Origin: Candidatus Multivorans sp.
Lineage (GTDB): Bacteria; Acidobacteriota; Thermoanaerobaculia; Multivoradales; Multivoraceae
NCBI GenBank assembly: GCA_965222875.1
Contig: CBDCVC010000002.1
Location: forward strand, 1,574,583-1,638,582
Reading direction: 5' to 3'
DNA length: 64,000 bases
Part shown: positions 34,743-57,223 of the stretch, in pieces
Numbering within the stretch: the stretch's first letter is position 1
Layout: the number at the start of each line of letters is the position of its first letter
The notes under the pieces: model-generated
Databases searched by the model: none
What the model was told of the DNA's origin: nothing
Seen by the model: the letters and a program-made list of their open reading frames with translations, nothing else
Position numbers and translations under genes: made by a program

Positions 34743-34835
34743 ACACCTTGGGTGTAGGACGCCGGCGCACCCAGTTCTTGCCGCCCGACCAGGGCGCCGT
34801 TTCGCGTATTTCCAATAACGTATGGAAGTACGCGA

Positions 34836-36697
34836 TGAAGCGACCGACCCGAGAAGAGGTGATGCCGTGGGCGGCCGGCTTCGGTGCGGCCGCGCTGGCC
34901 TGCCTGCTCGTGGCCGCGGCGCGGCCGGCGCCGGCCCCCAACCCGAGTCCGGCGCCCGGACCGATCGCGCTGCCGGCGGAGATCCGGGTAGGAGTCGCTA
35001 CGGACCTGGACCGCCTGGAAGCTCCTTGCTGCGAAACACCCTCCTGGTTGGTGGCCGAGGACGGCGAACGGTACGAGGTCGATGGGAGCTTCAGCGTGCG
35101 GCCGGCGCCGGGGAAGGCGAGTCCCGGCGTACATCGGCTCCAGGTAGCGGCTCTGCGGGATCGGTGGCAGGCAGGGGAGCTTGCCACCCGACTCGCGGGA
35201 CTGTTCGATCAGGAAGCGGACTCGGTCCTCGACGCCGCCACCGGGCTGTACCGGGTTCGGGTCGGGCGCTACGCGAGCCGGGAGCAGGCCGAGGAGGCTC
35301 GTGGTCGACTCCGGGTCGAGGGGTTCGACGACAGTTGGATCGCGATTGAGGGCGCGGTGCTGGAGGATCCCGGGTTCGTCGTCGAGGGCATCGGCGTCGT
35401 CGAGGGCATCGGTTGGATTGCGGGCAGGCGGCTCCGGTTCGAGTCGGTCGGGGACGTCGTTCGCATTCTCGGCCGCCGTTACCGGGGTGCTCTCGAACTG
35501 TTCGTGAACGATCGCGCCGGCCTGAACGTCGTGAACGCGGCGCCGCTCGAGGACTACGTGCGCGCTGTGGTGCCGGTCGAGTTGGGCCCGGACCTGTACC
35601 CCGAGCTCGAAGCGACCAAGGCGCAGGCGGTCGCCGCGCGCACCTACGCGGTGCGGCATCGCGGCGAGTTCGACGACGAGGGCTACGACATCTGCGCAAC
35701 GCCCCTGTGCCAGGTCTATGGCGGACTGGAGGCGGAGCATCCGCGCTCAGACGCGGCGGTGGCGGCTACCCGCGGCGAGATCCTGGTCCGGTCCGGCCAT
35801 GCCCTCGAGGCCCTCTTCACGGCGAGTTGCGGCGGCAGCACGGAACTTGTGGGCAACGTCTTCCCGCGTTTGGCTGGAAACGGTCCGGCCGGCGCCGCGT
35901 GCGTCGAGGGCGGAATCGTGCCGCTGGTCGGGGAAGCCGGAGGAACGCCGGAGCAGCACCTGCTGAAGGCGCTTGGCCTGGGCAGAGTGCGGGAGCGCCG
36001 GCGGAGCGAGCGCCTGCATCGGGCCCGGTCCAGGGGCGCGCTCAAGGTCGTGGCCGGGAACCTGGGGCGGATCGACGGCCGCTGGCTGCAACTGCGCAGG
36101 GATGGCGTGCGGAGATTGGTGCCCCTGGCGCCCGAGGCCGCCCTGTTGACCGCCGAAGCGCCGCCCGGCGCGTCGCCGGCGGACCTGGGCGTCCCGGTCG
36201 GGGCGCTCGCCATGGCGCCCGGGGATCGGGTCAGGGCCTACGTCGTCGGCGGTCGTGCGGCCCTCGTGGTCCACGAGACGCCTGCTGTGGGAGGCCAACC
36301 CATTGCTGTGCCCTGGTCGGTGTGGCGGCCTCACGGCTCGCTGCGGGAGGCGGTCGAGAAGCGCTTTCCCGGCCTGGGGTTGGTTTCGTTGAACGTGCTC
36401 GAGCGGGGGGTCTCGGGCCGGATAGCAAGGCTCGACCTGGTCGGCGAACGGCGCTCGGTCGAGGTTCGGGGCCTGGCCATCCGCTGGCTCCTCGACCTAC
36501 CGGAGAACCTGGTCCGGATGACCGCCGAAATCGGCGCCGGCGATGTCGCGGGCTGGCGGTTCGAGGGCGCGGGCCGTGGACACGGCGTCGGCATGTGCCA
36601 GATCGGCGCCTACCTCATGGCGCAGCGGGGTCTGAGCTACCGCGAGATTCTCTGGCACTACTACGGAGCGGTCGACATCGGTCGCTTTGGATCGTGA
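34836..36697 (+). CDS. SpoIID/LytB-domain protein with SPOR domain
   Basis: Signal peptide and a SPOR-like segment (LQVAALRDRWQAGELATRLAG…YRVRVGRYASREQAEEARGRL). The SpoIID core has its conserved motifs (LEDYVRAVVPVE, AQAVAARTYAV, GYDICATPLCQVY, FTASCGGSTE, GHGVGMCQIGA). Confidence 0.7.
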
Positions 36698-37740
36698 CCG
36701 CGGACGGCGAACGAGAGGTCTGGCTGGACGGACCGCAGCCCTGGCGCCGGACCCGGCGTCTCGCCCGGGCCCTGACCGCGATCGAGAGCGGGGCCGAGGC
36801 CGCCTGGGCAAGGGTCGCGTTCCGGCGTGCGGGCTATGCTGTGACCGTCGGTTTGACGGGCCCGCCCGGAGTTGGAAAGAGCACGCTGACGGCCGCGCTG
36901 GCCCGGGAGCTCCGGAATCGAGGCGAACCGGTGGCGGTGCTGGCGTTCGATCCCACCAGCCCGCTGACCGGCGGCGCGGTGCTCGGCGACCGGGTTCGCA
37001 TGTCCGACCTGGAGACGGACCCGGGCGTGTTCATCCGATCGATGGCCTCGCGCGGCGCTTCCGGCGGCCTGGCGCGGGCCGCCGCCGCCGCCGTCGACCT
37101 GCTCGACGCGGCGGGTTTCCCGTGGATTCTGGTGGAGACGGTGGGCGCGGGGCAGGCTCAGACGGCGATCCGCCGCAACTCCGACCTGGTGGTGCTGGTT
37201 ACAGCACCCGGTCTGGGCGACGGCGTCCAGGCGATGAAGAGCGGCACGATGGAGATCGCGGATGTCTTCGTCGTCAACAAGAGCGACCTGCCCGGCGCCG
37301 GCGCCGCGCGCCGCGCGATCGAGGACGCCGTCGGGCCGGAGCGCGGCGTTGGGGCTGGGCGGCCGCCGGTGGTTTCGACGGTGGCGCGAGCAGGCGAGGG
37401 GGCGGAGGAACTGCTTGATGCGGTCTCCGGGTGCTTCGATGGGCTGAAGGCCGGCGGGGCAATCGCCGCCCGCCGGTCGGCCCGTTTCCGCCGCCGGGTG
37501 CTCGACCTGTACCGGTACTCCGTGCTGCGGCTCGCCATGGACGCCGTCGAAGCCGGCAGCTTCGCCCCGGCAGCGGGGGATCCGGACCGGCCGGCTGCTC
37601 TGGACGGAGCGCCGGAATCGCAACAGAATCGGGCGCCCGCGAACGCCGGACCGCGTAGTGTGGATCCCTACGACCTTGCGGACCGGCTGGTCGCCGAGTT
37701 CGTCGGCGGATTCCGGCGAGACGTAGGAGCACGTTCATGA
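36694..37740 (+). CDS. meaB: Methylmalonyl-CoA mutase-associated GTPase MeaB/ArgK
   Basis: GTG start overlapping the spoIID stop (GTGA). P-loop GPPGVGKST, and switch and base-specificity motifs (DPTSPLTGGAVLGDR, VVNKSDL). Confidence 0.8.
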   Translation: MTADGEREVWLDGPQPWRRTRRLARALTAIESGAEAAWARVAFRRAGYAVTVGLTGPPGVGKSTLTAALARELRNRGEPVAVLAFDPTSPLTGGAVLGDRVRMSDLETDPGVFIRSMASRGASGGLARAAAAAVDLLDAAGFPWILVETVGAGQAQTAIRRNSDLVVLVTAPGLGDGVQAMKSGTMEIADVFVVNKSDLPGAGAARRAIEDAVGPERGVGAGRPPVVSTVARAGEGAEELLDAVSGCFDGLKAGGAIAARRSARFRRRVLDLYRYSVLRLAMDAVEAGSFAPAAGDPDRPAALDGAPESQQNRAPANAGPRSVDPYDLADRLVAEFVGGFRRDVGARS

Positions 37741-37880
37741 TCACCGCTCTGGACCACATCGCGATCGCCGTACCGTCGATTGAAGAGGCGAGGACGTTCT
37801 ACGAGAACCTGGGCCTGTCGGTCGCCGGAATCGAGGAGGTCGAGCACGAGGGCGTGCGGGTCGAGCTCTCCGAGCCGGCG
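37737..37880 (+). pseudogene. Methylmalonyl-CoA epimerase (glyoxalase/VOC family) N-terminal remnant, 47 codons only
   Basis: [49 protein letters not shown] matches the first roughly 45 residues of methylmalonyl-CoA epimerase, whose full length is about 130-150 aa. No continuation is found in any frame. The carA GTG start overlaps its stop. Confidence 0.55.
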
Positions 37881-38953
37881 TCGTGAGCGGCCGCCTCATT
37901 CTCGAGGACGGCGCCGTCTTCCACGGGGAGGCGCTGGTCGAGGGCAGTCGCTTTGCCGAGATCGTCTTCAACACCTCGATGACGGGCTACCAGGAGATCC
38001 TGACCGACCCCTCGTACCGCGGGCAGATCGTGATCATGACCCAGCCCCACATCGGCAACTACGGCGCCTACGACGACGCAGCGGAGTCGCACCGGGTCTG
38101 GGTGGAAGGTTTTGTCGCCCGCGAGTTCACCAGCCGCCGCTCCGGTATGGGGGACACGGACCTGGGCGCCTTTCTGCAGGCGAACGGCGTTCCGACTCTG
38201 GCGGGCATCGACACCCGTGCCGCCGTGCGCCGGCTCCGCGACTTCGGCGCCATGCGCGGCATGATCACGAGTTGCGACCGTCCCGATGCGGAGCTGATCG
38301 AGGAGGTGCGGCGGCAGCCCACGATGGAGGGACGTGCTCTCGCCGATGAAGTCACCTGCGAGGCGCCGTACGAGATGGAGGCGGAAGGCGAGGAGAAGTA
38401 CCGGCTCGCGGTCTACGACTTCGGTGTCAAGCAGAACATTCTGCGTTCCCTGGTCCGGCACGGCGCTCGCGTCACGGTGCTGCCGGCGCGCACGCCGGCC
38501 AGCGAGTGTCTGGCCATGGGCGTCGACGGCGTGGTGCTGTCGAACGGCCCGGGCGATCCGGCGCCGCTGCGCGAGATCGTCCGCGAGGTGCGCGAACTGG
38601 TCGAGGCCAGGGTGCCGGTGTTCGGTATCTGCCTGGGGCACCAACTGCTGGGTCTGGCTCTGGGCGGCAAGACCTTCAAGCTGAAGTTCGGCCACCACGG
38701 CAGCAACCAGCCGGTGCGGGACGAGGAGACCGGCCAGGTCTCGATCACGAGCCAGAACCACGGCTTCGCGCTCAGCGCGGACAGCCTTCCCGACGACTGC
38801 AAGGTGGCGGCGGTCAATCTGAACGACGGCACCGTCGAGGCGTTCAAGGCGATCGGGAGACCGATCTTCTCGGTCCAGTACCACCCGGAGGCGGCGCCGG
38901 GACCGCACGATGCGGCGCGGCTGTTCGGGGAGTTCCTGGAAGTCTGTGGCTGA
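37874..38953 (+). CDS. carA: Carbamoyl-phosphate synthase small (glutaminase) subunit CarA
   Basis: [17 protein letters not shown]…[22 protein letters not shown]…, and a class-I GATase triad region (GICLGHQLL, …QYHPE). Confidence 0.85.
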
Positions 38954-38999
38954 CCCGGACCGGCGGGGCGCGGCGCCCGCGGGTCGCGGTGGGGACGGT

Positions 39000-40199
39000 G
39001 TGGTCTGGTGGATCGCGGCGCGGTATCTGCTCGGCGCGCGCAGCCGGCTGCTGAGCGGTACGGCGCGCTCGGCTCTCGGGTCGACCGCCCTGGGCGTGGC
39101 CGCCATGGTCATCTCCATGGCGCTGATGAGCGGCTACAGCGACAGCGTCCAGAGCCGGCTGCTCGAGGCGGGCCCGCTGATCGTCTCACCGCTCGGTGAC
39201 GCCTCGGTGGACCCGGGCGCCGCGGACCGGATCGCTGAGCGTCTGCGGGCCCTGCCGGGCGCCGGAACGGTCGCCGTGACCGTGGCCGGCCAGGGTTCGC
39301 TCGCGAGCAGCGGCAATCCGGCGGGCGTCGATGTCTTGACGCGCGGCGTGGTACCCGGCGCTTCGTCCTTCGGCGCGACCGAGGGTCAACTCGCCCGTGG
39401 CGATGTGGGGATCGAGGCGATCGTCGTGGGTCGTGAGCTTCAGCGCACCCTTGGCGTGTCGGAAGGGGACCTGGTGCGCCTGACGGCGATCGTGGCCTCG
39501 GGTTCTTCCGGACCCCGATTCGCCTACCGCACGCTCCGCATCGGCGGCGCCTTCGAGACCGGATTCTCCGAGTACGACCGCAGCTATTCCGTGGTCCACC
39601 GGGACACGGCGGTTGCTGTCGGGGGAGGCCGGGTGGTCCTCGAGGTGACCACGGCGCCCGGCGCCTCTGTGTCCGACGTGCAGGAGAACATCGAGGAACT
39701 CGTGGGCGCCGATGCGCTGGTGACCGACTGGCGTCTCAGCAACCGCGACATCTTCGCCGCCTTCCGGCTTCAGAAGTGGGGCCTGTTCCTGATTCTGGGC
39801 CTGATCGTGCTCGTGTCGACGTTCAATATCGCGTCCGCGCTGGTGGTCCTGGTCCGGGAGCGGGGGAGGGACACCGCGGTGCTCGCCGCGCTCGGCCTCG
39901 GTCCGCGGCGCGTGCAACGTGTGTTCCTGCTCGGCGGGATGAGCCTGGGGGCGGTGGGGACGGCCCTCGGCCTTGGTCTCGGCGCCCTGGTCAGCGTGAT
40001 CATCACCCGCTACGAACTCGTGCGGTTCGATCCGGGCGTGGCGGAGATCTACTTCATCAGCAGCGTTCCGTTCGACGTGCGGGCCCTGGACCTGCTGGCG
40101 GTGGCCGGCTTCAGCCTGCTGGTGACGGGGCTCGCCTGCTGGTGGCCGGCGAGGCTGGGGGCGTCGGTCGAGCCGGCACGCGCCCTGCGCTGGGAGTAG
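39000..40199 (+). CDS. FtsX-like ABC transporter permease (LolC/E / MacB-type), inserted between carA and carB
   Basis: N-terminal transmembrane helix (VVWWIAARYLL), a large periplasmic domain, then three C-terminal transmembrane helices with a conserved FtsX region (FNIASALVVLVRERGRDTAVLAALG). The start at the GTG at 39000 is uncertain. Confidence 0.6.
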   Translation: MVWWIAARYLLGARSRLLSGTARSALGSTALGVAAMVISMALMSGYSDSVQSRLLEAGPLIVSPLGDASVDPGAADRIAERLRALPGAGTVAVTVAGQGSLASSGNPAGVDVLTRGVVPGASSFGATEGQLARGDVGIEAIVVGRELQRTLGVSEGDLVRLTAIVASGSSGPRFAYRTLRIGGAFETGFSEYDRSYSVVHRDTAVAVGGGRVVLEVTTAPGASVSDVQENIEELVGADALVTDWRLSNRDIFAAFRLQKWGLFLILGLIVLVSTFNIASALVVLVRERGRDTAVLAALGLGPRRVQRVFLLGGMSLGAVGTALGLGLGALVSVIITRYELVRFDPGVAEIYFISSVPFDVRALDLLAVAGFSLLVTGLACWWPARLGASVEPARALRWE

Positions 40200-40271
40200 C
40201 GGCGCAGCCGTTCGTCTCGCTGCTCTTGGTGCGGTTCCAGCACGGGCTACGAGAGGTAGTTGAGCTGAATT

Positions 40272-40305
40272 GGGAGGAGGGGTTGCTCGAAAGCAACCCC
40301 TCCCT
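40272..40305 (+). terminator. Strong GC-rich hairpin (12-bp stem, gggaggaggggttgc-tcgaaa-gcaacccctccc) 70 bp downstream of the permease gene
   Basis: Perfect stem read in the sequence. There is no downstream T-tract, which is common in high-GC genomes. It lies in a ~400-bp leader before carB. Confidence 0.35.
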
Positions 40306-40597
40306 GGTGTGAATCGCGCGCCGCCGGGTTGGACCCGCCGACGCGGAGGTTTGAAGGTTTGAGGCAGGTCCGGACGGTGTCCGGAGGGTGGGCTGCAGTT
40401 CCTCTGGCCGCGGACGCGGTCCAGTCGCAACCCGGTAGGTGACGACGCAGGAGTCGGGGCTTGATGCCGACGACTCGGTGCCGCCTCTATGAGAACTATA
40501 CGGTAGTCGAGGCCAAAGTGTTTAGCCCGCCGTGACATTTCTGCAGCATTCTTCTCCGTGGACGGGCTGCCGGGTTGCATGTATACTCCGCGCGCTC

Positions 40598-43816
<3,219 letters not shown>

Positions 43817-43822
43817 AGCCTC

Positions 43823-44100
43823 ATGTCCAGCCCTCCTTCATGGCGCGCCAGGCCGACATGGCTTTGTTGGTCGGGCGGAAAGGAATCAGCATGGGCCCTG
43901 CGGGTACTGAGGGCTGGTCCTGCCTGGGATGTCCGGGGCCTGATCGGGCTGGTGAACGAGAGGAACGGCCGGGCGATCCTGCATGGCGTACGCCACACGT
44001 TGCTCGAGCGGCAGGCCGCGGCGGTGGGGCTATCGCTTCGCTTGATCCCGCTCGATTGGACTGCTTCCGGGAGCGAACACGACGCGGCCGTGCGGCGGGG
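43823..44100 (+). pseudogene. Remnant of Dph6-related PP-loop ATP pyrophosphatase (DUF71/MJ0570 family), N-terminal ~90 codons
   Basis: …WLCWSGGKESAWAL…GLIGLVNERNGRAILHGVRHTLLERQAAAVGLSLRLIPLDW… matches the N-terminus of the SGGKDS PP-loop family. Similarity is lost after about residue 95, and no continuation is found in other frames. Confidence 0.4.
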
Positions 44101-44149
44101 TCGCGACACGTCGATGCCACTCCTGGTGCAGGCGCAGTTGGCGAGCAAA

Positions 44150-44511
44150 CTCCTGCATCCGGAACCGACCCATTCCGCCGCTTCGCGCGTTTTGCACGCT
44201 TGCTGCGCTACGTGGACGACCATCTAGCCGACGATCTGGATGTGGATGCCATCGCCAAGGTTGCGGCGATGTCGCCTTGGGGCTTCTCGAAGTACTTCCG
44301 GCAGCATGCCGGGGTGACGTTCGCAAGGTGGTTGGCTCGCCATCGAATCGAACATGCTTGCCGGTTGCTCCGCGAGACCAACTTCGCCGTGGCCAGGGTT
44401 GGAGAGTCCATTGGGTACAACAGCGAACGGACGTTCCGCCGTGCCTTTCAGGAGCATGTCGGTTGCAGCCCGTCGCAGTACAAGAAGGCCTCAATGCAGG
44501 TGGACACGTAG
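44150..44511 (+). pseudogene. AraC-family HTH domain, C-terminal fragment without sensor domain
   Basis: …FARLLRYVDDHLADDLDVDAIAKVAAMSPWGFSKYFRQHAGVTFARWLARHRIEHACRLLRETNFAVARVGESIGYNSERTFRRAFQEHVGCSPSQYKK is a complete dual-HTH AraC C-terminal domain. The in-frame upstream sequence overlaps carB and is non-coding-like. Confidence 0.5.
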
Positions 44512-44753
44512 GGGGCAGCGGCGGATCCAGGATCTGGCGCCAGGCGCCCGGTCGCCGGGAGCAGGTCGCGCCTCTGGATCTGGCCGGTCTCGCGCGAATC
44601 TGACCGATATCGGCCAGTTTGTGACCGGACATCTCTCACATTCGGCTCTAGGCTGGTTGGGCAGATGAAGAAACCCTCGAAGCACTCGGTCGCCTACGGA
44701 TGAGTCGTTTGGCGCCGAGGCTGTAGCACCTACACAAAGGGAGGGTTAGTTCC

Positions 44754-45017
44754 ATGATTCAGAGCCTCAAGAGATCTCGGAGTATGGCGATTTGCGGCGT
44801 GCTTCTGATGTTGCTGTCGCTCAGCGCTTCTTCGTCAGTCTTCGCCAGTTGCCGATCCTGCAACTGGGGAACCGGCGAGTGCATGAATGACGGCAGCGCC
44901 GGTAGCTGCAACAGGACGATCGTGATCGTGTACGACGAGAACGGGAACGTTGAGAGCCGGACAGTCACTTGCGAGGAGGAAGGACGATGTGGTGACTGGG
45001 GGCCACCGGAGTATTGA
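44754..45017 (+). CDS. Small secreted cysteine-rich protein (87 aa; signal peptide + ~57-aa mature part with 6 Cys)
   Basis: GGGAGGG ribosome-binding site 9 nt upstream of the ATG. Signal peptide MIQSLKRSRSMAICGVLLMLLSLSASSSVFA|SC…. GC content is locally lower (~55%). It lies immediately upstream of the IS1634 left end. Confidence 0.5.
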   Translation: MIQSLKRSRSMAICGVLLMLLSLSASSSVFASCRSCNWGTGECMNDGSAGSCNRTIVIVYDENGNVESRTVTCEEEGRCGDWGPPEY

Positions 45018-45070
45018 GGATGGTCAGAAGCGGCCTCACGCAGAAGCGCCATCAGTTCGCCATTGGCGCT

Positions 45071-47057
45071 CTAGTCCGAAGTTCTGAGGCTCCTGGGGCC
45101 TCCTCGTCGTCGAGAGGCGTTGCAGTGCTTGGGTTTTGGGGTGTTGGGCCGCCCATGTTTTCTGCCATTTGTAGCCATGTAAGAATCTCGTGGCATGTAG
45201 ACATCCTGAATGGTTTCGTCTACAATGAGAAGCCATGTACATCGAACGGGTACCCAACCGAAACTCACCACCCGCCGTCCTGCTGAGAGAGTCCTACCGA
45301 CAGGACGGAAAGGTCAAGAAACGCACTCTCGCCAACCTCTCCAAGTGGCCCGACCAACTCGTCGAAGGACTCAGAACCCTGCTCAAGGGAGGAGTCGCCC
45401 TGCCTTCGCTCGAGGCCGCCTTCGAGATCCTGCGCGCCAGACCGCACGGCCATGTCGCCGCCGTCCTCGGCGCGGCCCGAAGCCTCGGCATCGAACGACT
45501 CCTCGACCGACGGCCCTCGCGCGAACGGGCGCTGGCGCTGGCCATGATCGCGGCCCGCATCCTCGAGCCGCGATCCAAGCTCGCCACCGCCCGCGGACTC
45601 GCAAGCGAGACCATGAGCCACACCCTCGGCGAGGAACTCGGCGTGCAGGAGGCCTCGGCCGACGAACTCTACGGCGCCATGGACTGGCTGCTCGAAAGAC
45701 AGCCGCGCATCGAGCGGACTCTTGCCCGGCGGCATCTGGAAGACGGCTCGCTGGTGCTCTGCGACGTGACCTCGGTCTACTTTGAGGGCAGGAAGTGCAC
45801 GCTGGCCAGGCACGGCTACTCCAGGGACAAGAAGAGAGGCAAGGTCCAGATCGTCTTCGGCCTGCTCTGCAGCCGGGACGGATGCCCGGTCGCGGTCGAG
45901 GTATTCGAGGGCAACACGGCCGATCCGACGACCCTGAACGCCCAGGTGCAGAAGCTCCGCGACCGCTTCTCGCTGGAGAGGATCGTGATGGTCTCAGACC
46001 GGGGCCTGATCACCGACGCGCGCATCCGCGAGGACCTCGACCCCGCGGGCCTGTCCTGGATCAGCGCCCTGCGCGCGCCGGCGATCAGGACGCTGGCCCA
46101 GGAAGGCCACCTGCAACTGTCGCTCTTCGACCAGCGGAAGATGGCCGAGATCAGGGTCCCGGAGCTGTACCCCAAGGAGCGCCTCGTGGTGTGCCGGAAC
46201 CCGCTTCTGGCGGAGGAACGCGGCCGCAAGCGAAAGGAGCTTCTCGAATCCACCGAGCGCAAGCTCGACGCCGTCGTTGCGGCGACGCGGCGCAAGAAGA
46301 ACCTCCTGCGCGGCAAGGACGCCATCGCCGTGCGGGCGGACCGCGCCCGGGGCGCCTACAAGGTCGGCAAGCACTTCGAGGTCGAGATCGAAGAGGACGG
46401 CTTCCAATACCGCCGCAACGAGGCGCGCATCGCCGAGGAAGCCGCTCTCGACGGCTTCTACGTCATCCGCACCAACGTCCCCGAAGACGAACTGCCGGCA
46501 GCCGATGCGGTCCGCGCCTACAAGAGCCTCAGCCGCGTCGAACGCGCCTTCCGCTCCTACAAGAGCGTCGACCTCAAAGTGCGCCCCGTCCACCATCGCC
46601 TGGCCTCGAGGGTGCGCGCCCATGTCTTCCTCTGCATGCTCGCCTACTACGTCGAGTGGCACATGCGCCGGACCCTGGCGCCCCTCCTCTTCGACGACCA
46701 ACGCCGCGACGACCAACGCGAGTCGCCCGTCGATCCCGCGCGCAGGTCGCCCGAGGCAATGGCCAAGGCCAACTCCCGGAGGACCCCCGACGGACTCCCC
46801 GTCCACAGCTTCCAGACCTTGCTCGCCGACCTGGCCACGCTGACCCGAAACCGCGTGCGGATGCACGGCAAGGCCGACTCCACCGCCGACGTCCTCGCAC
46901 GGCCCACTCCACTCCAGAACGAAGCCTTCAAACTACTCGGCATCCGCCCCTGAAGCCGACGTACCCAGTACAAGACACCGCCGAACAACTGAAAACGCCC
47001 ACCACTACAGGCGATTTCACGACTTGAAGCTCAGAACTTCGGTCTAGTGCTGACGCG
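45071..47057 (+). mobile_element. IS1634-family (IS4 superfamily) insertion sequence, ~1.99 kb
   Basis: 19-bp terminal inverted repeats matching at 17 of 19 positions, enclosing a 572-aa IS1634-type DDE transposase. Confidence 0.75.
45235..46953 (+). CDS. IS1634-family DDE transposase
   Basis: The N-terminus MYIERVPNRNSPPAVLLRESYRQDGKVKKRTLANLSKWP is the IS1634 family hallmark. DDE region: LCDVTSVYFEG…MVSDRGL…. Confidence 0.85.
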   Translation: MYIERVPNRNSPPAVLLRESYRQDGKVKKRTLANLSKWPDQLVEGLRTLLKGGVALPSLEAAFEILRARPHGHVAAVLGAARSLGIERLLDRRPSRERALALAMIAARILEPRSKLATARGLASETMSHTLGEELGVQEASADELYGAMDWLLERQPRIERTLARRHLEDGSLVLCDVTSVYFEGRKCTLARHGYSRDKKRGKVQIVFGLLCSRDGCPVAVEVFEGNTADPTTLNAQVQKLRDRFSLERIVMVSDRGLITDARIREDLDPAGLSWISALRAPAIRTLAQEGHLQLSLFDQRKMAEIRVPELYPKERLVVCRNPLLAEERGRKRKELLESTERKLDAVVAATRRKKNLLRGKDAIAVRADRARGAYKVGKHFEVEIEEDGFQYRRNEARIAEEAALDGFYVIRTNVPEDELPAADAVRAYKSLSRVERAFRSYKSVDLKVRPVHHRLASRVRAHVFLCMLAYYVEWHMRRTLAPLLFDDQRRDDQRESPVDPARRSPEAMAKANSRRTPDGLPVHSFQTLLADLATLTRNRVRMHGKADSTADVLARPTPLQNEAFKLLGIRP

Positions 47058-49317
47058 CGTGCTGACGATTGCGCTGCCGGCCGAGGGCCAAGTGCCGGAA
47101 ACGGTGCGGTTGGTCGTTCACATCGAGATCAGGGGAACGGTAGACGACCGACTTCCGGCCGACATCGGTTTGGCGTTCCTGGAGGCTGCGACGCAGACGC
47201 CCCTTGCGAGCGTCACCGCCGAGATCGGGAGGGCGTCCACCGTGGACCTTCACGCGGCGGTGCCGCTACCCGCGGTCGGATCGGTCTGGGAGATCGAGAC
47301 GAGGGCCGAGGGGTGGTGGGGGCCCACCTTGCTGCTCTCAACGGATCGAAGAGAGATCGACATTGTTCTGGTTCCGGCTGGAACCGTTCGTCTCGAGGCG
47401 TGGGGCGCCGACCGCGGCGTCGCGATGCTGAACGAAGACACTGTCGGAATCGTCGGCCGAATCTCCAACAGAGCGGGCGCCGTCGCGCCGCTCCTCGACC
47501 CGGGTATCCACCGCGGCACCTGTGAGGTCGAGAGATTCCCGGACGAGCGCCGGGTGGCGGTTAGCTGTCCCTTTGCCCGTGGTTCTACGACGGATCTGGA
47601 GGTCCTGCTAGGACCGTTCCTCCCGCTCCGGAAGTCGACTGTGACCGTTTCGGACGACACGGACCTCGGTGTGGTTGAGACGGTCCGGGGAGGAGTTGTC
47701 ACCGGGCGTTACCAGGGCGAGAGCGGGGAAAGTGCCCACTTCGTTCTGCAACGCAGACATGCACTCTTCGAGTTTGTTCGCGTGGCCTGGACGGATGGCG
47801 CCCACTCCGTTCGTTTTGAGGGCCTCCAGCCCGGCGAGTACGAGTTAAGCCGGGTTGGTTCGCCGGATACACGGACTGCGACCATCGGGGCTCTGCATGA
47901 CGTGGTCGATCTCGGCGACCTTTATCCGGCCGCAAGGACTCGCTTGGCAGTGTCGGTCTTGACACCGTTCTACGTGAGGGGCGACGACCTGAGTCTGAAG
48001 CTGCAATCCGTGACTCGTTCGGAGGACGGCAGCGTGTACCGTCGCGGGCGCGTGATGGAACCGCCGTCGCGCGATTCCGGCGAGTGGATCTGGCGCGACG
48101 TCCCGGCGGGATCCTATGAACTCCAGATAGGCGACCGCTTCGGCAATCGCCTGGGACGCGAGCCGATCGAGTTCTTCACGGCCAACGACCGAGTAGTCGT
48201 TGAGCTGGATGCGATACCCCTGGAAGGGGTGATTCGGCAGGGCAGCGAACCGCTGGAGGACGCGATGGTCTGGTTCGGGGGCGCTTGGGGGAGTGAGCGG
48301 ACGGCCCTGCGCAGCCGGGAAGACGGTCGCTTCAAAGGCTGGCTGCCCCGTAGCGGGCACTGGTTCGTTGAGGTCAGTTCGGCGCCTGACTGCGACCCGT
48401 GTGAAGGCGAATGGGATACCGCCGGTTGGAATGGATTCGCGCCGAATCCCTTGAGCGAGGCTGGAGTCATTGAAGTTGAGCCGGACAGCGACGGCGTTGC
48501 GCGCGTGGAGATCGAGGTGGCTGCTGGAGGCATCGAAGGTCAAGTGTTCCGCATCTCCCCGACGACAGGTGTTTCCGATCTGGTTTCCGGGGCCAATGTC
48601 AGTGTGATGGTGCCGGCTGATGATCAGGGGAAGGAGCGGGACGCCCTTCGGCCTGAGCGCTGGCAGGCAACGTCAGGCACTGACGGAAAGTTCTCAATAC
48701 CAGGAGTTCCCGAAGGGAACTACCAAGTGCGAGCAACTGCTCGAGTTGAGGGCCGCGAGCTTAGGTCCCCCTGGCTTGCGGCGAGAGTGAGCAAGTCCGG
48801 GGAGATGACGGCGGTGGACTTGCATCTGGAGGAACAGAAGCGGATCACGTTGGCCGTCTTCTCGTCCGGTGTTCCGGTGGATAGTGCGCAGGTACTCGCG
48901 AAACCGATTGGGCCGGATCGCGCCATCAGTGGTGGCAAGACGCGGGAAGACGGAACCACGGAACTTTGGCTGCCGCCGGCTGCTCAACTCGTCGACGTTG
49001 TCGTGCGTAGGCGTGGAATGGGGATGGTCGCGTGGCGGTTCGATTTGGACATTGGGCCGATCGAGATCGAACTTCCGGATCTGCGGGGCAGCCTGCGGGC
49101 ACCTGTCACGAGCAGTGGGGCGATCATCTCGCCCGGCGGTGTTCAGTGGGACACGGCACACCTTCTAGCGATAGACGGTGCTTGGCAGATCCGCGTAGAA
49201 GGTAGTGAGTATGTCGTAGGCGAGTTGGCGCCTGGCAGGTGGATGTACTGCCTGTCTGGAGACGATTGTAGACATGTCGATGTAACACCTTGGAGCGAGA
49301 GCCGAGTGTCACAGTAG
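47056..49317 (+). CDS. Large hypothetical protein with repeated CarboxypepD_reg-like / Ig-like β-sandwich domains; 5' end coincides with IS inverted repeat
   Basis: About 750 aa and lower GC. Repeated motifs such as GVVTGRYQGESGESAHF, GSYELQIGDRFGN and TDGKFSIPGVPEGNYQVRATA resemble carboxypeptidase-regulatory-like domains. There is no signal peptide at the annotated N-terminus. The ORF begins inside the inverted-repeat copy at 47039-57. Confidence 0.45.
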   Translation, partial: RVLTIALPAEGQVPETVRLVVHIEIRGTVDDRLPADIGLAFLEAATQTPLASVTAEIGRASTVDLHAAVPLPAVGSVWEIETRAEGWWGPTLLLSTDRREIDIVLVPAGTVRLEAWGADRGVAMLNEDTVGIVGRISNRAGAVAPLLDPGIHRGTCEVERFPDERRVAVSCPFARGSTTDLEVLLGPFLPLRKSTVTVSDDTDLGVVETVRGGVVTGRYQGESGESAHFVLQRRHALFEFVRVAWTDGAHSVRFEGLQPGEYELSRVGSPDTRTATIGALHDVVDLGDLYPAARTRLAVSVLTPFYVRGDDLSLKLQSVTRSEDGSVYRRGRVMEPPSRDSGEWIWRDVPAGSYELQIGDRFGNRLGREPIEFFTANDRVVVELDAIPLEGVIRQGSEPLEDAMVWFGGAWGSERTALRSREDGRFKGWLPRSGHWFVEVSSAPDCDPCEGEWDTAGWNGFAPNPLSEAGVIEVEPDSDGVARVEIEVAAGGIEGQVFRISPTTGVSDLVSGANVSVMVPADDQGKERDALRPERWQATSGTDGKFSIPGVPEGNYQVRATARVEGRELRSPWLAARVSKSGEMTAVDLHLEEQKRITLAVFSSGVPVDSAQVLAKPIGPDRAISGGKTREDGTTELWLPPAAQLVDVVVRRRGMGMVAWRFDLDIGPIEIELPDLRGSLRAPVTSSGAIISPGGVQWDTAHLLAIDGAWQIRVEGSEYVVGELAPGRWMYCLSGDDCRHVDVTPWSESRVSQ

Positions 49318-49338
49318 CGCTCTCCCGGAAAGGAAGCC

Positions 49339-49824
49339 ATGCAAGAAAAATTGAGAGCAGCTGTCGTTGTCGCTGCTGTGTTCGTGGTGCCGTTGATGGC
49401 CGAGGAGCAGATCGCGACCCAGAAGAGGGCGGGCTACATGGGCGTCGGCTTTGCCGTGGATCCCAACAGTGGACAGGTACGAGTGGAACATGTCGTGCCT
49501 CAAGCACCCGCTGCTCGAAGTGGAGTTCAAGCTGGCGATGTTCTGGATACCGTGAATGGCGCGAAGGTCCGGTTCGGGAGCCATGCCGACGTGATCGAGT
49601 TCTTCGAGCGGTCGACATTCGCGAGCGTTCCGGTCGCGATGTCCTACCTGCGAGGATCAGAGGTAGTGAAGGTAGAGGCGACACCAAGTCAGCGGCCAGC
49701 GGAAGTGGTCGAGAGGAACGCCAAGGCCGTTCTATGCAGGGACGGCGTACTGTTTGCCAGCAAACGGCAAGCAGCGAACAGCCTGGTCCCGGCGAGGTCT
49801 CAACCCGTAAAGGACCGCCGGTAG
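49339..49824 (+). CDS. Secreted PDZ-domain protein
   Basis: Signal peptide (MQEKLRAAVVVAAVFVVPLMA) and a PDZ segment (GYMGVGFAVD…VVPQAPAARSGVQAGDVLDTVNGAKV). A GGAAAGGAAG ribosome-binding site 22 bp after the upstream stop suggests co-transcription. Confidence 0.6.
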   Translation: MQEKLRAAVVVAAVFVVPLMAEEQIATQKRAGYMGVGFAVDPNSGQVRVEHVVPQAPAARSGVQAGDVLDTVNGAKVRFGSHADVIEFFERSTFASVPVAMSYLRGSEVVKVEATPSQRPAEVVERNAKAVLCRDGVLFASKRQAANSLVPARSQPVKDRR

Positions 49825-49965
49825 CGGAGTATCCCGACGGGCCGGTTGGGATTGCGGAGCCTCCCCGCTGCGGCTGAGATCGCTGTGTCGCTGGGCCATG
49901 GACCGCGCTTGGGCTGCGGCCAGACGGTTGGAGCCGGCGCGGCTGCTGAGCATCAGAACTTCGCG

Positions 49966-50240
49966 CTAGCTGGCGCCGCGGCGAATGCGCTCGATCTTCG
50001 TCTTCAGCCGTTCCGACAGGCGTCGCTTCTCGGCGCGGTAGTTCTCTTCTTCCTGGAGTCGTTTGGCCGGGTCGGGGGACAGATTCTTGCGGTGGAGGAT
50101 CTCGAGTTCGGCGAGCTTCGCCTGGTGGCGACTCCGTTCGTCCTCGATGCGCCGGCGCTGGTTCTCGTCCAGGGCGTCCCGCTGGGGCGCGGCGATGCCC
50201 CTGCTCTCCAGCTTCTCGAGCGCCCTCTCGTAGGCTGACT

Positions 50241-50245
<5 letters not shown>
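49966..50245 (-). CDS. Hypothetical charged coiled-coil protein, translationally coupled to the mutase gene; stop codon supplied by the IS-like inverted repeat
   Basis: [92 protein letters not shown]. Its GTG start overlaps the mutase stop (GTGA). Its TAG stop lies within the ctag end of the inverted-repeat copy at 49951-69. Confidence 0.3.
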
Positions 50246-51806
<1,561 letters not shown>

Positions 51807-52099
51807 CGCAGGTGAGCTTATCGCTGCCCGGGAATCCGCAGGGTTTAGCGGGCCTCTCCGCAGCTTCTTCCCTGTTTATCGATGAGGCTGCATAGACCGA
51901 TGAGTGCCATATCTTGTACAGTCACCCCTTGACAACCACCACATGTTGGACTAGCAGGGCGAATAGACTGAGCTTCTGACTTCACTGGACGTTCACACGT
52001 CTCAAGCATGGCACTACGCTCACGAGCGGCGCGGAACAGCCCGCGCAGCGTCCGACTGCGTTGACGCCGGAGCTTGAGAACACCGAAGGGAGAGGGACT

Positions 52100-54967
<2,868 letters not shown>

Positions 54968-55027
54968 GGTCCGCGAGCTGTCGGCGCCAGCAGGGCTGAG
55001 CCCTGCAAGGGCTGCTAGGCTGCCCGG

Positions 55028-55561
55028 GTGACAAGAGGTCTTGCAATTGGGCTGCTGGTGGCCCTGGGCGTGGTGGCGGCAGCGTTCGTCGTCTTCGTCG
55101 GGCTCAACGTGGCGACGGCGCCGGATGTCTCGGAACTCGATCCGATCCTGACGAGTTTCCAGCTCGACACCCTGGACGGATCGCGCCTGGGCCCGCCGGA
55201 CTTGCGCGGAGACGTCGTGGTGGTCGACTTCTGGGCGACCTGGTGCAAGCCATGCGACGCCCAGGCGAGGATCCTGGAGGGGCTGCACGCGGAGTACGCC
55301 GACAAGGGGGTGACGTTCCTGGCCCTGAACACGGGCGAGGATCTGGAGACGGTCCAGAAGCACGTCGACGAGAAGCCGTTCGGTTACCCGGTGCTGCTCG
55401 ACCCCGAGAGCGAGGTGATGCGCACCGCGGAGCTTTCCGGTCTGCCCACGCTCCTGGTGCTCAATCCGCTCGGTGAGGTGTCCTACATCGCCATCGGTGT
55501 GACCGGGGCGAGCGTGGTGAGGAGCGCGATCGAGGAAGCGCGCGCGGTCGCATCGGGTTGA
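55028..55561 (+). CDS. TlpA-like thiol-disulfide oxidoreductase (thioredoxin fold, WCKPC)
   Basis: N-terminal transmembrane anchor and a redoxin domain with FWATWCKPC. Confidence 0.7.
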   Translation: MTRGLAIGLLVALGVVAAAFVVFVGLNVATAPDVSELDPILTSFQLDTLDGSRLGPPDLRGDVVVVDFWATWCKPCDAQARILEGLHAEYADKGVTFLALNTGEDLETVQKHVDEKPFGYPVLLDPESEVMRTAELSGLPTLLVLNPLGEVSYIAIGVTGASVVRSAIEEARAVASG

Positions 55562-55613
55562 GGCCGGAGGCCCGGCAGCCCGGTTCTCGCGTCGCAGGAG
55601 GTTCGTTCGCGTC

Positions 55614-55850
55614 GTGATCAACATCCGCAGCCTCTCGATCAAGTGCGGCCACTGCGACAGCTACCAGACACTGTGCGCATACCGCCGCCGGGACGATTGG
55701 AACGTGTACGTCTACGAGTGCGAGAACGACGTGTGCGACCCGGAGTTGAGCCGCACGCTGGTGGAGGTGCCGAGCGAACTGGACGAGTTCGCGAGCCGGG
55801 ATCCGACCTGGGCGCACGGACGGCGCCATAGCGGCGGCCAGGACGAATAG
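55614..55850 (+). CDS. Small hypothetical zinc-ribbon-like protein
   Basis: 78 aa with CGHCDSY…C…YECENDVCDP (4+ Cys). The GTG start makes this a weak call. Confidence 0.3.
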   Translation: MINIRSLSIKCGHCDSYQTLCAYRRRDDWNVYVYECENDVCDPELSRTLVEVPSELDEFASRDPTWAHGRRHSGGQDE

Positions 55851-55913
55851 GTCGATCCCCTGGGACCGCGGAAACAGCCTCTCTCGGCTGAACGGCTGGA
55901 AACCCTCGCCGCG

Positions 55914-57140
55914 TTGGCGGGAATCAGCCGCCTGGAGCTGACAATCGAGAAGGTCGTGCTGGGCGGCGACGGTCTGGCGCGCTGGCGCGATCTGCCGATC
56001 TTCGTGCCGCGGGCTGCGCCGGGCGACGTGGTCGATGTCCGGATCAGTGAACGCCGGCCGAGCTACGCCCGCGCCGAGATCGAACGCGTGATCTCAGCCG
56101 GCCCTCTGCGGCGGGAAGCTCCCTGTCCCTTCTACGCCCGCTGCGGCGGCTGCCAACTTCAGCACATCGAGGACGATGCGCAGTTCGGCCTCAAGGTCGC
56201 CGCAGCGACGGAGACGTTGCGCCGGCTGGGCGGCATCGATCCGGCTCAGCTTGCGAGTTGCCACGTCGAAGAACCGGTCGGGGACCGGCAGTGGGGCTAT
56301 CGCCTGCGGGCCCAGGTCCACGTCGAACAGGACGCGGACGGGTCGACCGGCGTCGGTTTCCGCCGTCGCCGCAGCCATGACCTGGTCCAGGTCGACCGCT
56401 GCCCGGTGCTGGCGCCGGCGCTCGAAGCCCAGTTGGCCGATCTGCCGCGGTTGCTGGACGACGCGGCGCAGGCCGGGCAGGCTCTGCCGGGCCGCCTCAG
56501 CCTGGCCACGGACGGTCTCGACCAAGACAGCCCGGTGGTTGCGGCGCCCCCCTTGGGCGGACTGCCGGGCGGCGAACTGGAGGTCGAGCTGCTGGGGCGT
56601 CGCCTGACCTTCGACGCCCGCTGCTTCTTCCAGGCCCACGGGGGATTGCTGGAGACGGTGGCGCGATCGGCGGTGGGTTCCTTCGAGGGCGAGACGGCGG
56701 TCGACCTCTACGCGGGGGTCGGCTTCTTCACGGTCGGTCTCGCCGACCGCTATGGGTCGGTGACGGCGGTCGAAGGCGAATCGGTCGCCGCGCGCTACGC
56801 GAGGAACAACCTGCGCCTGAACGGCCTGCGTCACTGCCGGGTCGAGCGGGCCGCGGTCGAGAGTTGGGTCGACGGCAAGGCAGGCGGCGAGGGCCTGGCG
56901 CCCGGACTTGATCGCGTTCTGGCCGATCCGCCCCGCGTCGGTTTGTCGTGGAACGTCCGCCGGGCCCTGCTGCGGGCCGCGCCGGCCCGGTTGACCTACG
57001 TGTCCTGCGATCCGGCGACGCTGGCTCGCGATCTCGGCGAGCTGACCCGGGACTTCGACCTGGAGTCGATCACGTTCTTCGACATCTTCCCGCAGACCGC
57101 CCACCTGGAGACGGTGGTCCAGTTGCGGCGACGCGGCTGA
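55914..57140 (+). CDS. rlmD: 23S rRNA (uracil-C5)-methyltransferase RlmD/RumA-like (TRAM + FeS + SAM-MTase)
   Basis: TRAM domain (…LTIEKVVLGGDGLAR…), a 4-Cys cluster (CPFYARCGGCQLQH…C) and a C-terminal class I SAM methyltransferase (DLYAGVGFF, DPPRVG). Confidence 0.7.
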   Translation: MAGISRLELTIEKVVLGGDGLARWRDLPIFVPRAAPGDVVDVRISERRPSYARAEIERVISAGPLRREAPCPFYARCGGCQLQHIEDDAQFGLKVAAATETLRRLGGIDPAQLASCHVEEPVGDRQWGYRLRAQVHVEQDADGSTGVGFRRRRSHDLVQVDRCPVLAPALEAQLADLPRLLDDAAQAGQALPGRLSLATDGLDQDSPVVAAPPLGGLPGGELEVELLGRRLTFDARCFFQAHGGLLETVARSAVGSFEGETAVDLYAGVGFFTVGLADRYGSVTAVEGESVAARYARNNLRLNGLRHCRVERAAVESWVDGKAGGEGLAPGLDRVLADPPRVGLSWNVRRALLRAAPARLTYVSCDPATLARDLGELTRDFDLESITFFDIFPQTAHLETVVQLRRRG

Positions 57141-57223
57141 CGCCGCGGCTGCGGCTGCGGCTGCTCGGCGCCACCCGTCCGCACCGGCGTCCGGAGGGGA
57201 GGTTCCAAGCGGCCGCTCGGCGG

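Follow-up and report, generated by a model that had tools for sequence, protein, structure and literature searches.

An IS1634-family element inserted within a probably older gene islet beside carB in Candidatus Multivorans

Composite transposons and ISEcp1-type one-ended units are transposition units mobilised by insertion sequences (IS), and solo IS ends, known as IS scars, occur as relics in bacterial genomes. Elements of the IS5 group target and duplicate CTAG or YTAR tetranucleotides, with IS5 itself duplicating 4 bp. The family that concerns us most here is IS1634, whose members have a length of 1500-2000 bp, the terminal consensus C-----YT, a target duplication of 5-6 bp and transposases with an incomplete YREK motif (De Palmenaer et al. 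2008, PMC2266710). In the literature that we searched, no description was found of adjacent DNA being mobilised by IS1634-family elements.

We analysed a window of 64 kb (the whole stretch of DNA under study) from Ca. Multivorans, in which one such element lies close to the carB gene. In our main reading, to which we assign a probability of about 80 %, the locus records two nested and independent events involving one IS lineage, an older insertion of a gene islet and a later insertion of the IS. The history of the locus is one of ordinary genome wear, without any 4.9-kb mobile unit, and nothing in it would surprise a specialist in mobile elements.

The intact IS is 1967 bp long (45076..47042, + strand) and ends in perfect 13-bp terminal inverted repeats, CCGAAGTTCTGAG, at 45076-88 and 47030-42. 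Its ends were defined by 19 other near-identical copies in Ca. Multivorans genomes (17 full-length ones, 98-99 % identical, and two deletion derivatives), which align exactly over 45076-47042, with homology ending at positions 1 and 1967. One transposase ORF of 572 aa (45235..46953, +) fills the element and is full length compared with the other copies. It scored 346 bits over residues 28-571 against the NCBIfam model NF033559 (IS1634 family transposase, cut-off 100) and only 25.5 bits against the IS4 model (cut-off 115), and the Pfam domain DDE_Tnp_1 was recognised with E = 5.7e-14. The transposase stands so far above the NF033559 cut-off that the assignment to the IS1634 family, proposed in the initial annotation, can be upheld. 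The single DDE ORF, the length and both ends (CCGAAGTT...), which fit C-----YT, also agree with the family.

When the window was scanned with the 19-mer CTAGTCCGAAGTTCTGAGG at up to three mismatches, exactly three sites were recovered, where shuffled sequences predict 0.01: 45071-89 (+, no mismatch), 47029-47 (-, two mismatches) and 49951-69 (-, three mismatches). The CTAG at the outer edge of each copy is target-site sequence and lies outside the IS, the true tips being 45076 and 47042. Because the target itself is near-palindromic, the longest inverted repeat gives IS boundaries that are 5 bp too wide at each end. The observations of the initial annotation thus stood in part. It had described three repeat copies, all of which exist, and placed the distal one correctly at 49951-69 with 16 of 19 matching positions, but the cognate internal repeat sits at 47029-47047 and not at 47039-57, and the IS of 1.99 kb is real but has the smaller extent given above.

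The element is flanked by a perfect 6-bp duplication, TCTAGT, with identical left (45070..45075) and right (47043..47048) copies, which the initial annotation overlooked. Perfect duplications of the form N-[CTAG/TTAG/CTAA]-N are present in 13/20 copies of the IS, against about 10 % (0.10) expected by chance. An active, multi-copy IS1634-family element with a strict N-CTAG-N target is now defined in Ca. Multivorans and the Thermoanaerobaculia, and by its sequence it is a candidate new member of the family in this class of Acidobacteriota. The 6-bp duplication falls within the family range. However, the element prefers N-CTAG-N (YTAR-core) sites in a genome of 68 % GC, whereas the family is described with AT-rich tracts of 5-6 bp. 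IS1634 and IS1549 themselves are reported to make long duplications of variable length, which this element does not. The tetranucleotide core of the target is shared with the IS5 group, from which the element differs in the family of its transposase (IS1634, not IS5) and in the length of the duplication (6 bp, not 4 bp). We counted 24 occurrences of CTAG in the 64 kb, compared to 191 expected. This eightfold depletion in these genomes means that the IS has few and predictable landing sites, and these are often stop-codon contexts or low-GC accessory genes.

The TCTAGT site lies inside a gene. Its 5′ fragment (45014..45075, +, starting at TTG 45014 or ATG 45020), severed by the IS, codes for the n-region of a signal peptide plus half of the h-region, and its 3′ part (47049..49317, +) encodes a CarboxypepD_reg-like secreted protein with Pfam CarboxypepD_reg and SpaA domains. 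If the IS and one copy of the duplication are removed, the 5′ fragment joins position 47049 in frame (empty-site junction CATTGGCGCTCTAGTGCTGACGCG) and a gene of 776 aa is restored. The rebuilt N-terminus, MRMVRSGLTQKRHQFAIGALVLTRVLTIALPAEGQ, is signal-peptide-like and can be aligned gap-free with seven orthologues (775-781 aa), which cover 99-100 % of the rebuilt protein, and invariant residues flank the insertion point, G18 to the left of the IS and L22 to the right. Because IS-free orthologues align with the rebuilt signal peptide, the gene was already resident when the IS split it. The initial annotation had noticed an ORF of ~750 aa starting inside the internal repeat. The GTG start at 47047 does exist, but the 756-aa ORF is a truncation artefact created at the IS junction, and it lacks an export signal and is probably non-functional. 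The deposited 756-aa protein should be annotated as an IS-truncated fragment of a 776-aa secreted protein.

This IS insertion is the recent, and probably still polymorphic, event of the two. The active 1967-bp element entered the TCTAGT site within codons 19-21 of the CarboxypepD_reg gene, duplicating 6 bp and cutting the signal peptide in two. Two Logan contigs from run ERR13605531, each 100 % identical to the window, break precisely here: the last base of L085 is 45075 and the first base of L001 is 47043. A second sample shares these contigs. At k = 31, the multi-copy nature of the IS alone would put the contig breaks 30 nt inside the element. The breaks fall exactly at the TCTAGT duplication instead, which points to a second, empty allele alongside the filled one, with the sequence CATTGGCGCTCTAGTGCTGACGCGCG across the site. 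On the evidence of contig end positions rather than reads, we infer that filled and empty alleles coexist.

The split gene is part of a cassette, the first gene of which encodes an 87-aa Cys-rich protein with a signal-peptide-like N-terminus (44754..45017, +) and occupies the same position in relatives. The last one encodes a 161-aa PDZ-domain protein (49339..49824, +; Pfam PDZ_2, PDZ and PDZ_6). The small-protein/CarboxypepD_reg/PDZ cassette is contiguous and IS-free in three other loci (L002, L003 and L004), each with a 75-85-aa counterpart of the 87-aa gene that overlaps the large gene by 4 bp, and in L002 and L003 the large gene is followed by the conserved PDZ gene. These contiguous IS-free cassettes refute the single transposition of 45070-49970 that had been proposed in the initial annotation, in which the intact IS, the cargo genes and the distal repeat form one IS-derived unit with TGGCGC as its target duplication. 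The idea drew on the 16/19 bases of the distal repeat in the correct inverted orientation, on TGGCGC standing one base outside CTAG at either side and on the lower GC of the enclosed genes. However, the true IS tips lie 6 bp further in than TGGCGC, and the IS owns the perfect TCTAGT duplication. The hexamers that actually abut 45076 and 49964 are TCTAGT and GCTAGC, which agree only in the obligatory CTAG core and differ in the informative outer bases. Both TGGCGC hexamers (45064-69 and 49971-76) are present as described, but they are unrelated native coding sequence. The right-hand one is found as native coding sequence in the insertion-free L087, and the hexamer is frequent in the window (74 copies on the + strand, 117 on both strands). 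Moreover, the DNA to the left of the supposed unit encodes the first 20 residues of its cargo protein and the upstream partner gene. We found no empty site joining the two outsides; in orthologues the sequence left of the supposed unit runs on into the cargo gene, and in relatives it is carB that adjoins the right flank. The three cargo proteins were encountered at 0/80 other IS-bearing loci, with flanks of up to 8 kb per side where the contig allowed. We regard such a 4.9-kb unit as practically untenable.

The nested reading places the older insertion elsewhere. In four related genomes (L086, L087, L088 and L089) the mutase gene, a small ORF downstream of it and carB are adjacent, and the interval missing from them is 43817-49964, neither 45070-47057 nor 45070-49970, which were the alternatives considered in the initial annotation. 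This 6.1-kb islet (43817..49964, +; 6148 bp, or 4175 bp without the later IS) contains a regulator pseudogene, the 87-aa gene, the IS-split CarboxypepD_reg gene, the PDZ gene, a further 123 bp of unassigned sequence and an IS-end relic. L086 is collinear with 34239-43813 and 49974-57157 of the window (DNA identity 90-93 %), and no more than 18 bp separate the two segments. The contigs pass both islet junctions without a break. Exact-protein look-ups of the transposase, the mutase, the 756-aa ORF and the small ORF gave no match.

Both neighbours of the islet are intact, contrary to the suggestion that the insertion may have truncated them. On the left, carB (carbamoyl-phosphate synthase large subunit, 40532..43816, +) ends in ...SLAG*, compared to ...VLAG* in L087. 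On the right, the 92-aa small ORF (49966..50244, -; end sequence GCCGCGGCGAATGCGC) has its full length, is collinear with the homologues in L086 and L087 and has the C-terminus RIRRGAS*, exactly as in L087. The carB stop codon falls in the left copy of the islet target, GCTAG (43812..43816), and the small ORF, read on the minus strand, has its native stop in the right copy, GCTAGC (49965..49970). The distal repeat had been credited with supplying this stop, but the codon is native target sequence, present in the IS-free L087. There the junction between carB and the small ORF holds a single GGCTAGC and reads ...GGCTAGCTGGCGCCGCGGCGAATGCG..., while the islet junctions of the window read ...GGCTAG followed by AGCCTCATG... 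on the left and ...CAGAACTTCGC followed by GCTAGCTGGCGCC... on the right. The duplication matches at 5/6 bases (GCTAGA versus GCTAGC) and not at 6/6; the same pair of hexamers also flanks one genuine IS copy (L020).

In the older event, which appears to be fixed in the one sampled population, a block of ~4.2 kb would have entered the palindromic GCTAGC in which the stop codons of the convergent carB and small ORF overlap. The block would have carried the AraC/Diphthami_syn_2 regulator, the 87-aa secreted protein, the CarboxypepD_reg-like secreted protein and the PDZ protein, and the target GCTAG would have been duplicated at 43812-16 and 49965-69. Because the target was duplicated, the native stops of carB and the small ORF were both preserved. 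The intact IS is a later and unrelated passenger inside the islet.

The islet could alternatively be ancestral and have been lost from the relatives by deletion between the GCTAG repeats, and the odd L086 junction, GCTAGgagcgGCTTAG, is readable as a deletion or excision footprint. We consider this very improbable. The islet is missing in four genomes of three lineages (mutase identity 96, 93 and 91 %), the L087 target is clean and single-copy, and three of the four relatives have a different cassette (52-56 % protein identity) at another site, which is empty in the window. The GC3 of the islet is also ~20 points under that of its neighbours (0.66-0.72 in the enclosed genes versus 0.90-0.92 in the flanks), with a GC content of 0.63 in the islet genes versus 0.68-0.69. 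This profile agrees with the lower-GC cargo seen in the initial annotation, but the low-GC block begins at 43817, to the left of the IS. We rejected low GC as proof of recent transfer, because the cassette lies ~5 GC points below its flanks in every relative. We likewise rejected a move of the cassette from the other side of the mutase gene, the site used in L086 to L088, because the cassettes share only ~65 % DNA identity and the flanks 88-93 %.

At the right edge of the islet lies the third repeat, a 17-bp relic of the IS left end (GCGAAGTTCTGATGCTC, 49948..49964, -) that matches the left end of the intact IS at 15/17 bases. Its tip base is mutated from C to G, and GCTAGC adjoins it. When the 123 bp that separate the relic from the PDZ stop were compared with every IS variant fetched, only the 17-bp tip and the target matched. 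The third repeat is a genuine IS-derived end. A chance match without IS ancestry, for which one could cite about ten chance 13-mers that differ from the IS tip at no more than two positions across some 0.45 Mb of related loci and the fact that the CTAG part is native target sequence present in L087, is extremely improbable. Among the chance 13-mers, neither a correctly spaced CTAG nor the four additional bases specific to the left end, GCTC, occurs, and in the ~1.1 Mb examined the relic is, real IS ends aside, the only repeat-like match with CTAG correctly placed. Shuffles predict 0.01 matches to the 19-mer (up to three mismatches) per window, the junctions without insertion in L086, L087 and L089 lack the 17 bases, and the relic is positioned exactly at the insertion boundary. 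The interpretation in the initial annotation was therefore partly supported. Besides the IS family, the third repeat is real and does bound an inserted lower-GC block at its right edge, but the block is 43817-49964 with a GCTAG duplication and not the 4.9-kb unit.

Like other IS scars, the relic is a short and slightly mutated terminal repeat beside a target that can still be recognised, and neither a transposase nor a partner end lies close to it. It differs from them in coinciding exactly with the border of a 6-kb insertion, and it therefore also informs on how the insertion arose. A duplicated N-CTAG-N target abutted by an IS tip is the signature of the IS1634-family transposase found here, from which we infer delivery by an IS. 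The islet is thus probably an older insertion, flanked by duplicated GCTAG and delivered by an IS of the same family as the intact one. The vehicle would have been an IS1634-family element acting as part of a composite or a one-IS transposition unit; the body of the IS would have been lost afterwards, with the right edge of the block keeping the outermost 17 bp of the IS end. As in composite and ISEcp1-type units, a block of genes unrelated to the IS terminates in one of its terminal repeats and sits in its preferred, duplicated target. The islet differs from those units in that it keeps only the 17-bp tip of one end, its other border has no visible IS end, no second copy of it is known, and it encloses an intact IS that does not belong to the unit.

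The search for an IS end at the left islet edge (43817) gave a best match of 9/17, a score reached by 24 % of random positions. Without a recognisable end on this side, two-ended transposition of the block is not directly visible. The 8-mer GAGCCTCA at the left border was considered as an inner part of the IS left end and rejected; we take it as native because its AGCC also stands just upstream of the regulator start codon in L003, the one homologue resembling the window around the 8-mer. An intact IS at the carB/small-ORF site, or this type of cassette beside an intact IS, was found in no genome, and a metagenome scan for the small-ORF/CTAG junction gave no match.

The bare left edge is one argument for an islet that arrived by an IS-unrelated route, such as illegitimate or microhomology recombination at GCTAG, with a separate IS hit at CTAG that decayed to the 17-bp stub. 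The relic could stem from such a separate insertion at the same CTAG hot spot. The cassette occurs in four genomic contexts, and no IS relics were found at its borders in L002, L003, L004, L086 and L087. CTAG is rare (24 in 64 kb) and is the preferred target, so that independent hits on one site are plausible. On the other hand, the ancestral site holds a single GCTAGC, and keeping both stops requires the duplication of at least CTAG, which is exactly the habit of the IS1634-family transposase here. The IS-unrelated route needs a 5-bp microhomology event, an IS insertion and a deletion of the IS body and the left duplication copy that spared the tip, that is three events, compared to two for IS-mediated delivery. 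We judge it unlikely.

Under IS-mediated delivery, a more specific proposal is that the 4.2-kb cassette was mobilised by an IS1634-family element as a transposition unit. One end would have been genuine and would survive as the 17-bp relic, the other would have been a surrogate or would have belonged to a second IS since excised, and the cassette would have been placed precisely in the CTAG palindrome of the two convergent stop codons. We put this forward tentatively, as a possibility that we would not favour at present. If true, it would be the first mobilisation of adjacent genes by the family, and it would explain the presence of the cassette in at least four different chromosomal contexts in Thermoanaerobaculia. 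The cassette is set between two conserved housekeeping genes, neither of which is damaged, and the IS scar is the sole trace of its vehicle. The closest cassette homologue has only 74 % protein identity (82 % DNA), so no donor could be identified. The Diphthami_syn_2/AraC-type regulator gene at the left end of the islet (43823..44511, +) has become a pseudogene through an internal deletion of ~410 bp and a frameshift, and its homologues adjoining the cassette in L003 and L004 are intact, with 364-380 aa.

Nested traces of insertion sequence (IS) activity make up this locus: the scar of an old event together with a fresh insertion. The result has practical value for annotation and mild interest for IS biology, though it is not surprising. 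The ORFs that the initial annotation had described (transposase, CarboxypepD_reg-like, PDZ, mutase and a minus-strand small ORF) are all present as described. The 572-aa DDE transposase does belong to the IS1634 family, with a score of 346 bits against NF033559 (cut-off 100). A scan of the genome collection with the transposase returned 80 loci, among which we found 17 full-length copies with 98-99 % identity and two copies with an internal deletion, all from four Candidatus Multivorans (Thermoanaerobaculia) chromosomes. The alignment of all copies covers window positions 45076-47042 and stops there in every copy, so the element is 1967 bp long. Its tips are 13 bp and perfect, CCGAAGTTCTGAG. 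The 6 bases beyond the tips vary among copies yet agree between the two sides of one copy (e.g. CTTAGC/CTTAGC, TCTAGG/TCTAGG, ACTAGA/ACTAGA), with perfect pairs in 13 of 20 cases, where base usage predicts about 10 %. The core of these flanks is CTAG in 16 copies, TTAG in 3 and CTAA in 1, and no other core occurs. In the window, TCTAGT at 45070-75 is repeated at 47043-48, so the outer CTAG previously counted as part of the repeat is duplicated target. These flanks show that the intact IS arrived by an ordinary simple insertion and made a 6-bp duplication of its own. The length, C-----YT tips and duplication length all conform to the published description of the family (PMC2266710), and the element is a new IS1634-family member with a pronounced preference for CTAG-core targets.

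In 7 of 19 copies (flanks from loci L005-L029, which bear the IS or its relatives) the outer base, position 1 or 6, is unequal between the flanking hexamers, which suggests a variable stagger of 4-6 bp or flank exchange via recombination between copies. The two deleted copies, both on OZ245033.1 at different loci (L028 7842-9247 and L029 7842-9247), are 1406 bp long, lack roughly IS positions 1263-1786 and are bordered by sequences with a CTAG or TTAG core; this derivative resembles a non-autonomous element mobilised in trans. Remoter relatives in Thermoanaerobaculia genomes (L021-L024, L026 and L040; transposase identity 72-80 %) share with the IS a nearly unchanged 13-bp tip and flanks with a CTAG or TTAG core; both the tip and the preferred target are conserved within this IS subgroup.

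The initial annotation had proposed that a 4.9-kb unit, 45070-49970, carrying low-GC cargo genes, moved in a single transposition with TGGCGC as its 6-bp target duplication. This has to be abandoned, as the IS has its own TCTAGT duplication and the cassette (an 87-aa small-protein gene, the CarboxypepD_reg-like gene and the PDZ gene) is contiguous without the IS in three genomes, an outcome that the initial annotation had itself named as counting against the unit. TGGCGC does lie at 45064-69 and 49971-76; the hexamer is, however, frequent in the window (117 occurrences on both strands, 74 on the + strand); the right copy encodes codons G-A-S of the small ORF and the left copy I-G-A of a signal peptide. 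The "cargo" gene, a 756-aa ORF for a CarboxypepD_reg and SpaA protein, is a resident gene split by the IS. When 45076-47048 is removed in silico, an ORF from TTG 45014 (or ATG 45020) runs in frame into it and adds MRMVRSGLTQKRHQFAIGAL ahead of VLTRVLTIALPAEGQ, which together make a typical signal peptide. Orthologues found by protein search are 775-781 aa long, cover 99-100 % of the rebuilt protein, and their N-termini align gap-free over the insertion point with invariant residues on either side. The three IS-free genomes have a gene of 75-85 aa, homologous to window 44754-45017 left of the IS, which overlaps the large gene by 4 bp; the PDZ gene (161 aa in the window) comes next in two of them. 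None of the three cassette proteins was found at any of the 80 IS-bearing loci.

The 19-mer repeat was found three times at up to 3 mismatches, at 45071-89 (+), 47029-47 (-) and 49951-69 (-), against 0.01 expected in the 64-kb window after dinucleotide shuffling; the three copies noticed earlier are thus real, but the internal one had been placed 10 bases off, at 47039-57. With corrected tips the distal copy, read on the minus strand from 49964 down to 49948, is GCGAAGTTCTGATGCTC, which matches the IS left end at 15 of 17 bases and runs on into GCTAGC, a target of the N-CTAG-N type. Related loci do contain chance 13-mers at up to 2 mismatches, but in none of these is CTAG correctly spaced, nor do any have the four further left-end bases, and CTAG is 8-fold depleted in the window (24 observed, 191 expected). 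This makes the distal copy a genuine relic of an IS end; no other IS sequence lies next to it.

The relic bounds an inserted low-GC block, as had been supposed, but the limits of the block are 43817-49964. In all four closest relatives, picked by identity of the methylmalonyl-CoA mutase (L086, 96 %; L087 and L088, 93 %; L089, 91 %), the mutase gene, the minus-strand small ORF and carB are adjacent. L086 aligns collinearly, at 90-93 % DNA identity, with window 34239-43813 and 49974-57157, the two aligned parts separated by 18 bp. The junction in L087 reads GGCTAGCTGGCGCCGCGGCGAATGCG, and its single palindromic CTAG is the carB stop codon on one strand and the small-ORF stop on the other. In the window this sequence is interrupted (...GGCTAG, 6148 bp, GCTAGCTGGCGCC...), so 43817-49964 is an insertion, hereafter the islet, flanked by duplicated GCTAG. 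The two sides differ in the sixth base of the duplication, A against C, and this pair of hexamers is also found around a genuine IS copy (L020). No neighbouring gene was truncated, contrary to the earlier suggestion: carB (...LAG before the stop) and the small ORF (...RIRRGAS before the stop) keep their native C-termini. At the same junction L086 (11831-11848) has GCTAGgagcgGCTTAG in place of the single GCTAGC of L087, with 11 extra bp, a second YTAR motif and a small-ORF C-terminus altered to ...RRGD; speculatively, an insertion at this hot spot that was later lost could have left this footprint.

The islet holds a Diphthami_syn_2/AraC-type regulator pseudogene at its left end (43823-44511), the three-gene cassette, the relic, 123 bp of unassigned DNA and, as a later arrival, the IS. 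The pseudogene has a frameshift and an internal loss of about 410 bp compared with intact homologues of 364-380 aa beside the cassette in L003 and L004, two of the IS-free genomes; the copy in the third, L002, is likewise split. GC is 0.63 in the islet vs 0.68-0.69 in the flanks, and GC3 0.66-0.72 vs 0.90-0.92, but all relatives have a comparably GC-poor cassette, which makes low GC a trait of the cassette and not proof of recent transfer. The nearest cassette has 74 % protein and 82 % DNA identity, and no donor of the islet was identified. A metagenome scan for the carB/small-ORF junction and several exact-protein look-ups of locus proteins gave no match.

The borders show that the older event was an insertion of 6.1 kb, that its CTAG-containing target was duplicated and that one border carries an IS tip. 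This insertion was probably catalysed by a transposase of the IS1634-type family of the intact IS, because the ancestral site was one GCTAGC, keeping both stops needs a duplication such as this transposase makes, and an IS tip forms the right border. The left border lacks an IS end, as the best match there, 9 of 17, does not exceed chance, and homology to regulator genes of other genomes begins within about 6 bp of it. The unit may have been composite, its left IS later excised cleanly and its right IS deleted down to the tip; or one IS and a surrogate end may have served as the unit, with the IS body deleted later. Both routes fit the border facts equally well here. The main alternative, that the islet was inserted independently of any IS and that a separate IS then hit the same hot spot and decayed, requires one event more, and we consider it unlikely.

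Two contigs of run ERR13605531 are 100 % identical to window 43759-45075 and 47043-50050 and their breaks fall precisely on the outer end of the left copy of the duplication and on the outer start of its right copy. In a de Bruijn assembly with k = 31, a multi-copy IS alone would put the breaks 30 nt within the IS; two alleles, filled and empty, are expected to give breaks at the edges of the duplication, and these contig ends, as distinct from reads, point to both at the locus. The IS insertion is recent. The contigs continue unbroken across both islet borders, so the islet is not variable in this population.

Among related Thermoanaerobaculia the cassette, usually with an AraC-type regulator nearby, occurs in at least four chromosomal settings that are unrelated to one another (L002 7747-12031; L003 7771-13765, within a mevalonate-pathway cluster; L004 7747-11440; L086 1-4659; window 43817-49964), with GC about 5 points under the flanks at every site, and behaves like a floating accessory module. 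A different CarboxypepD_reg cassette (protein identity 52-56 %, DNA about 65 %) lies between the tRNA-U5-methyltransferase and PTPS genes in L086, L087 and L088 (L087 896-4666; L086 1-4664), where the window has 64 bp only (57145-57209). In L086 an ISL3-family transposase gene (222-1487) sits between its CarboxypepD_reg and PDZ genes, so the cassette was struck by different IS families in different lineages; the CarboxypepD_reg protein there has 731 aa, shorter than the 783 aa of L087. Eight of the 24 window CTAGs fall within 8 kb around the islet (43000-51000), and in L087 7 of 10 in 21.6 kb fall within the low-GC cassette region; the cassette is therefore a preferred landing zone for the IS.
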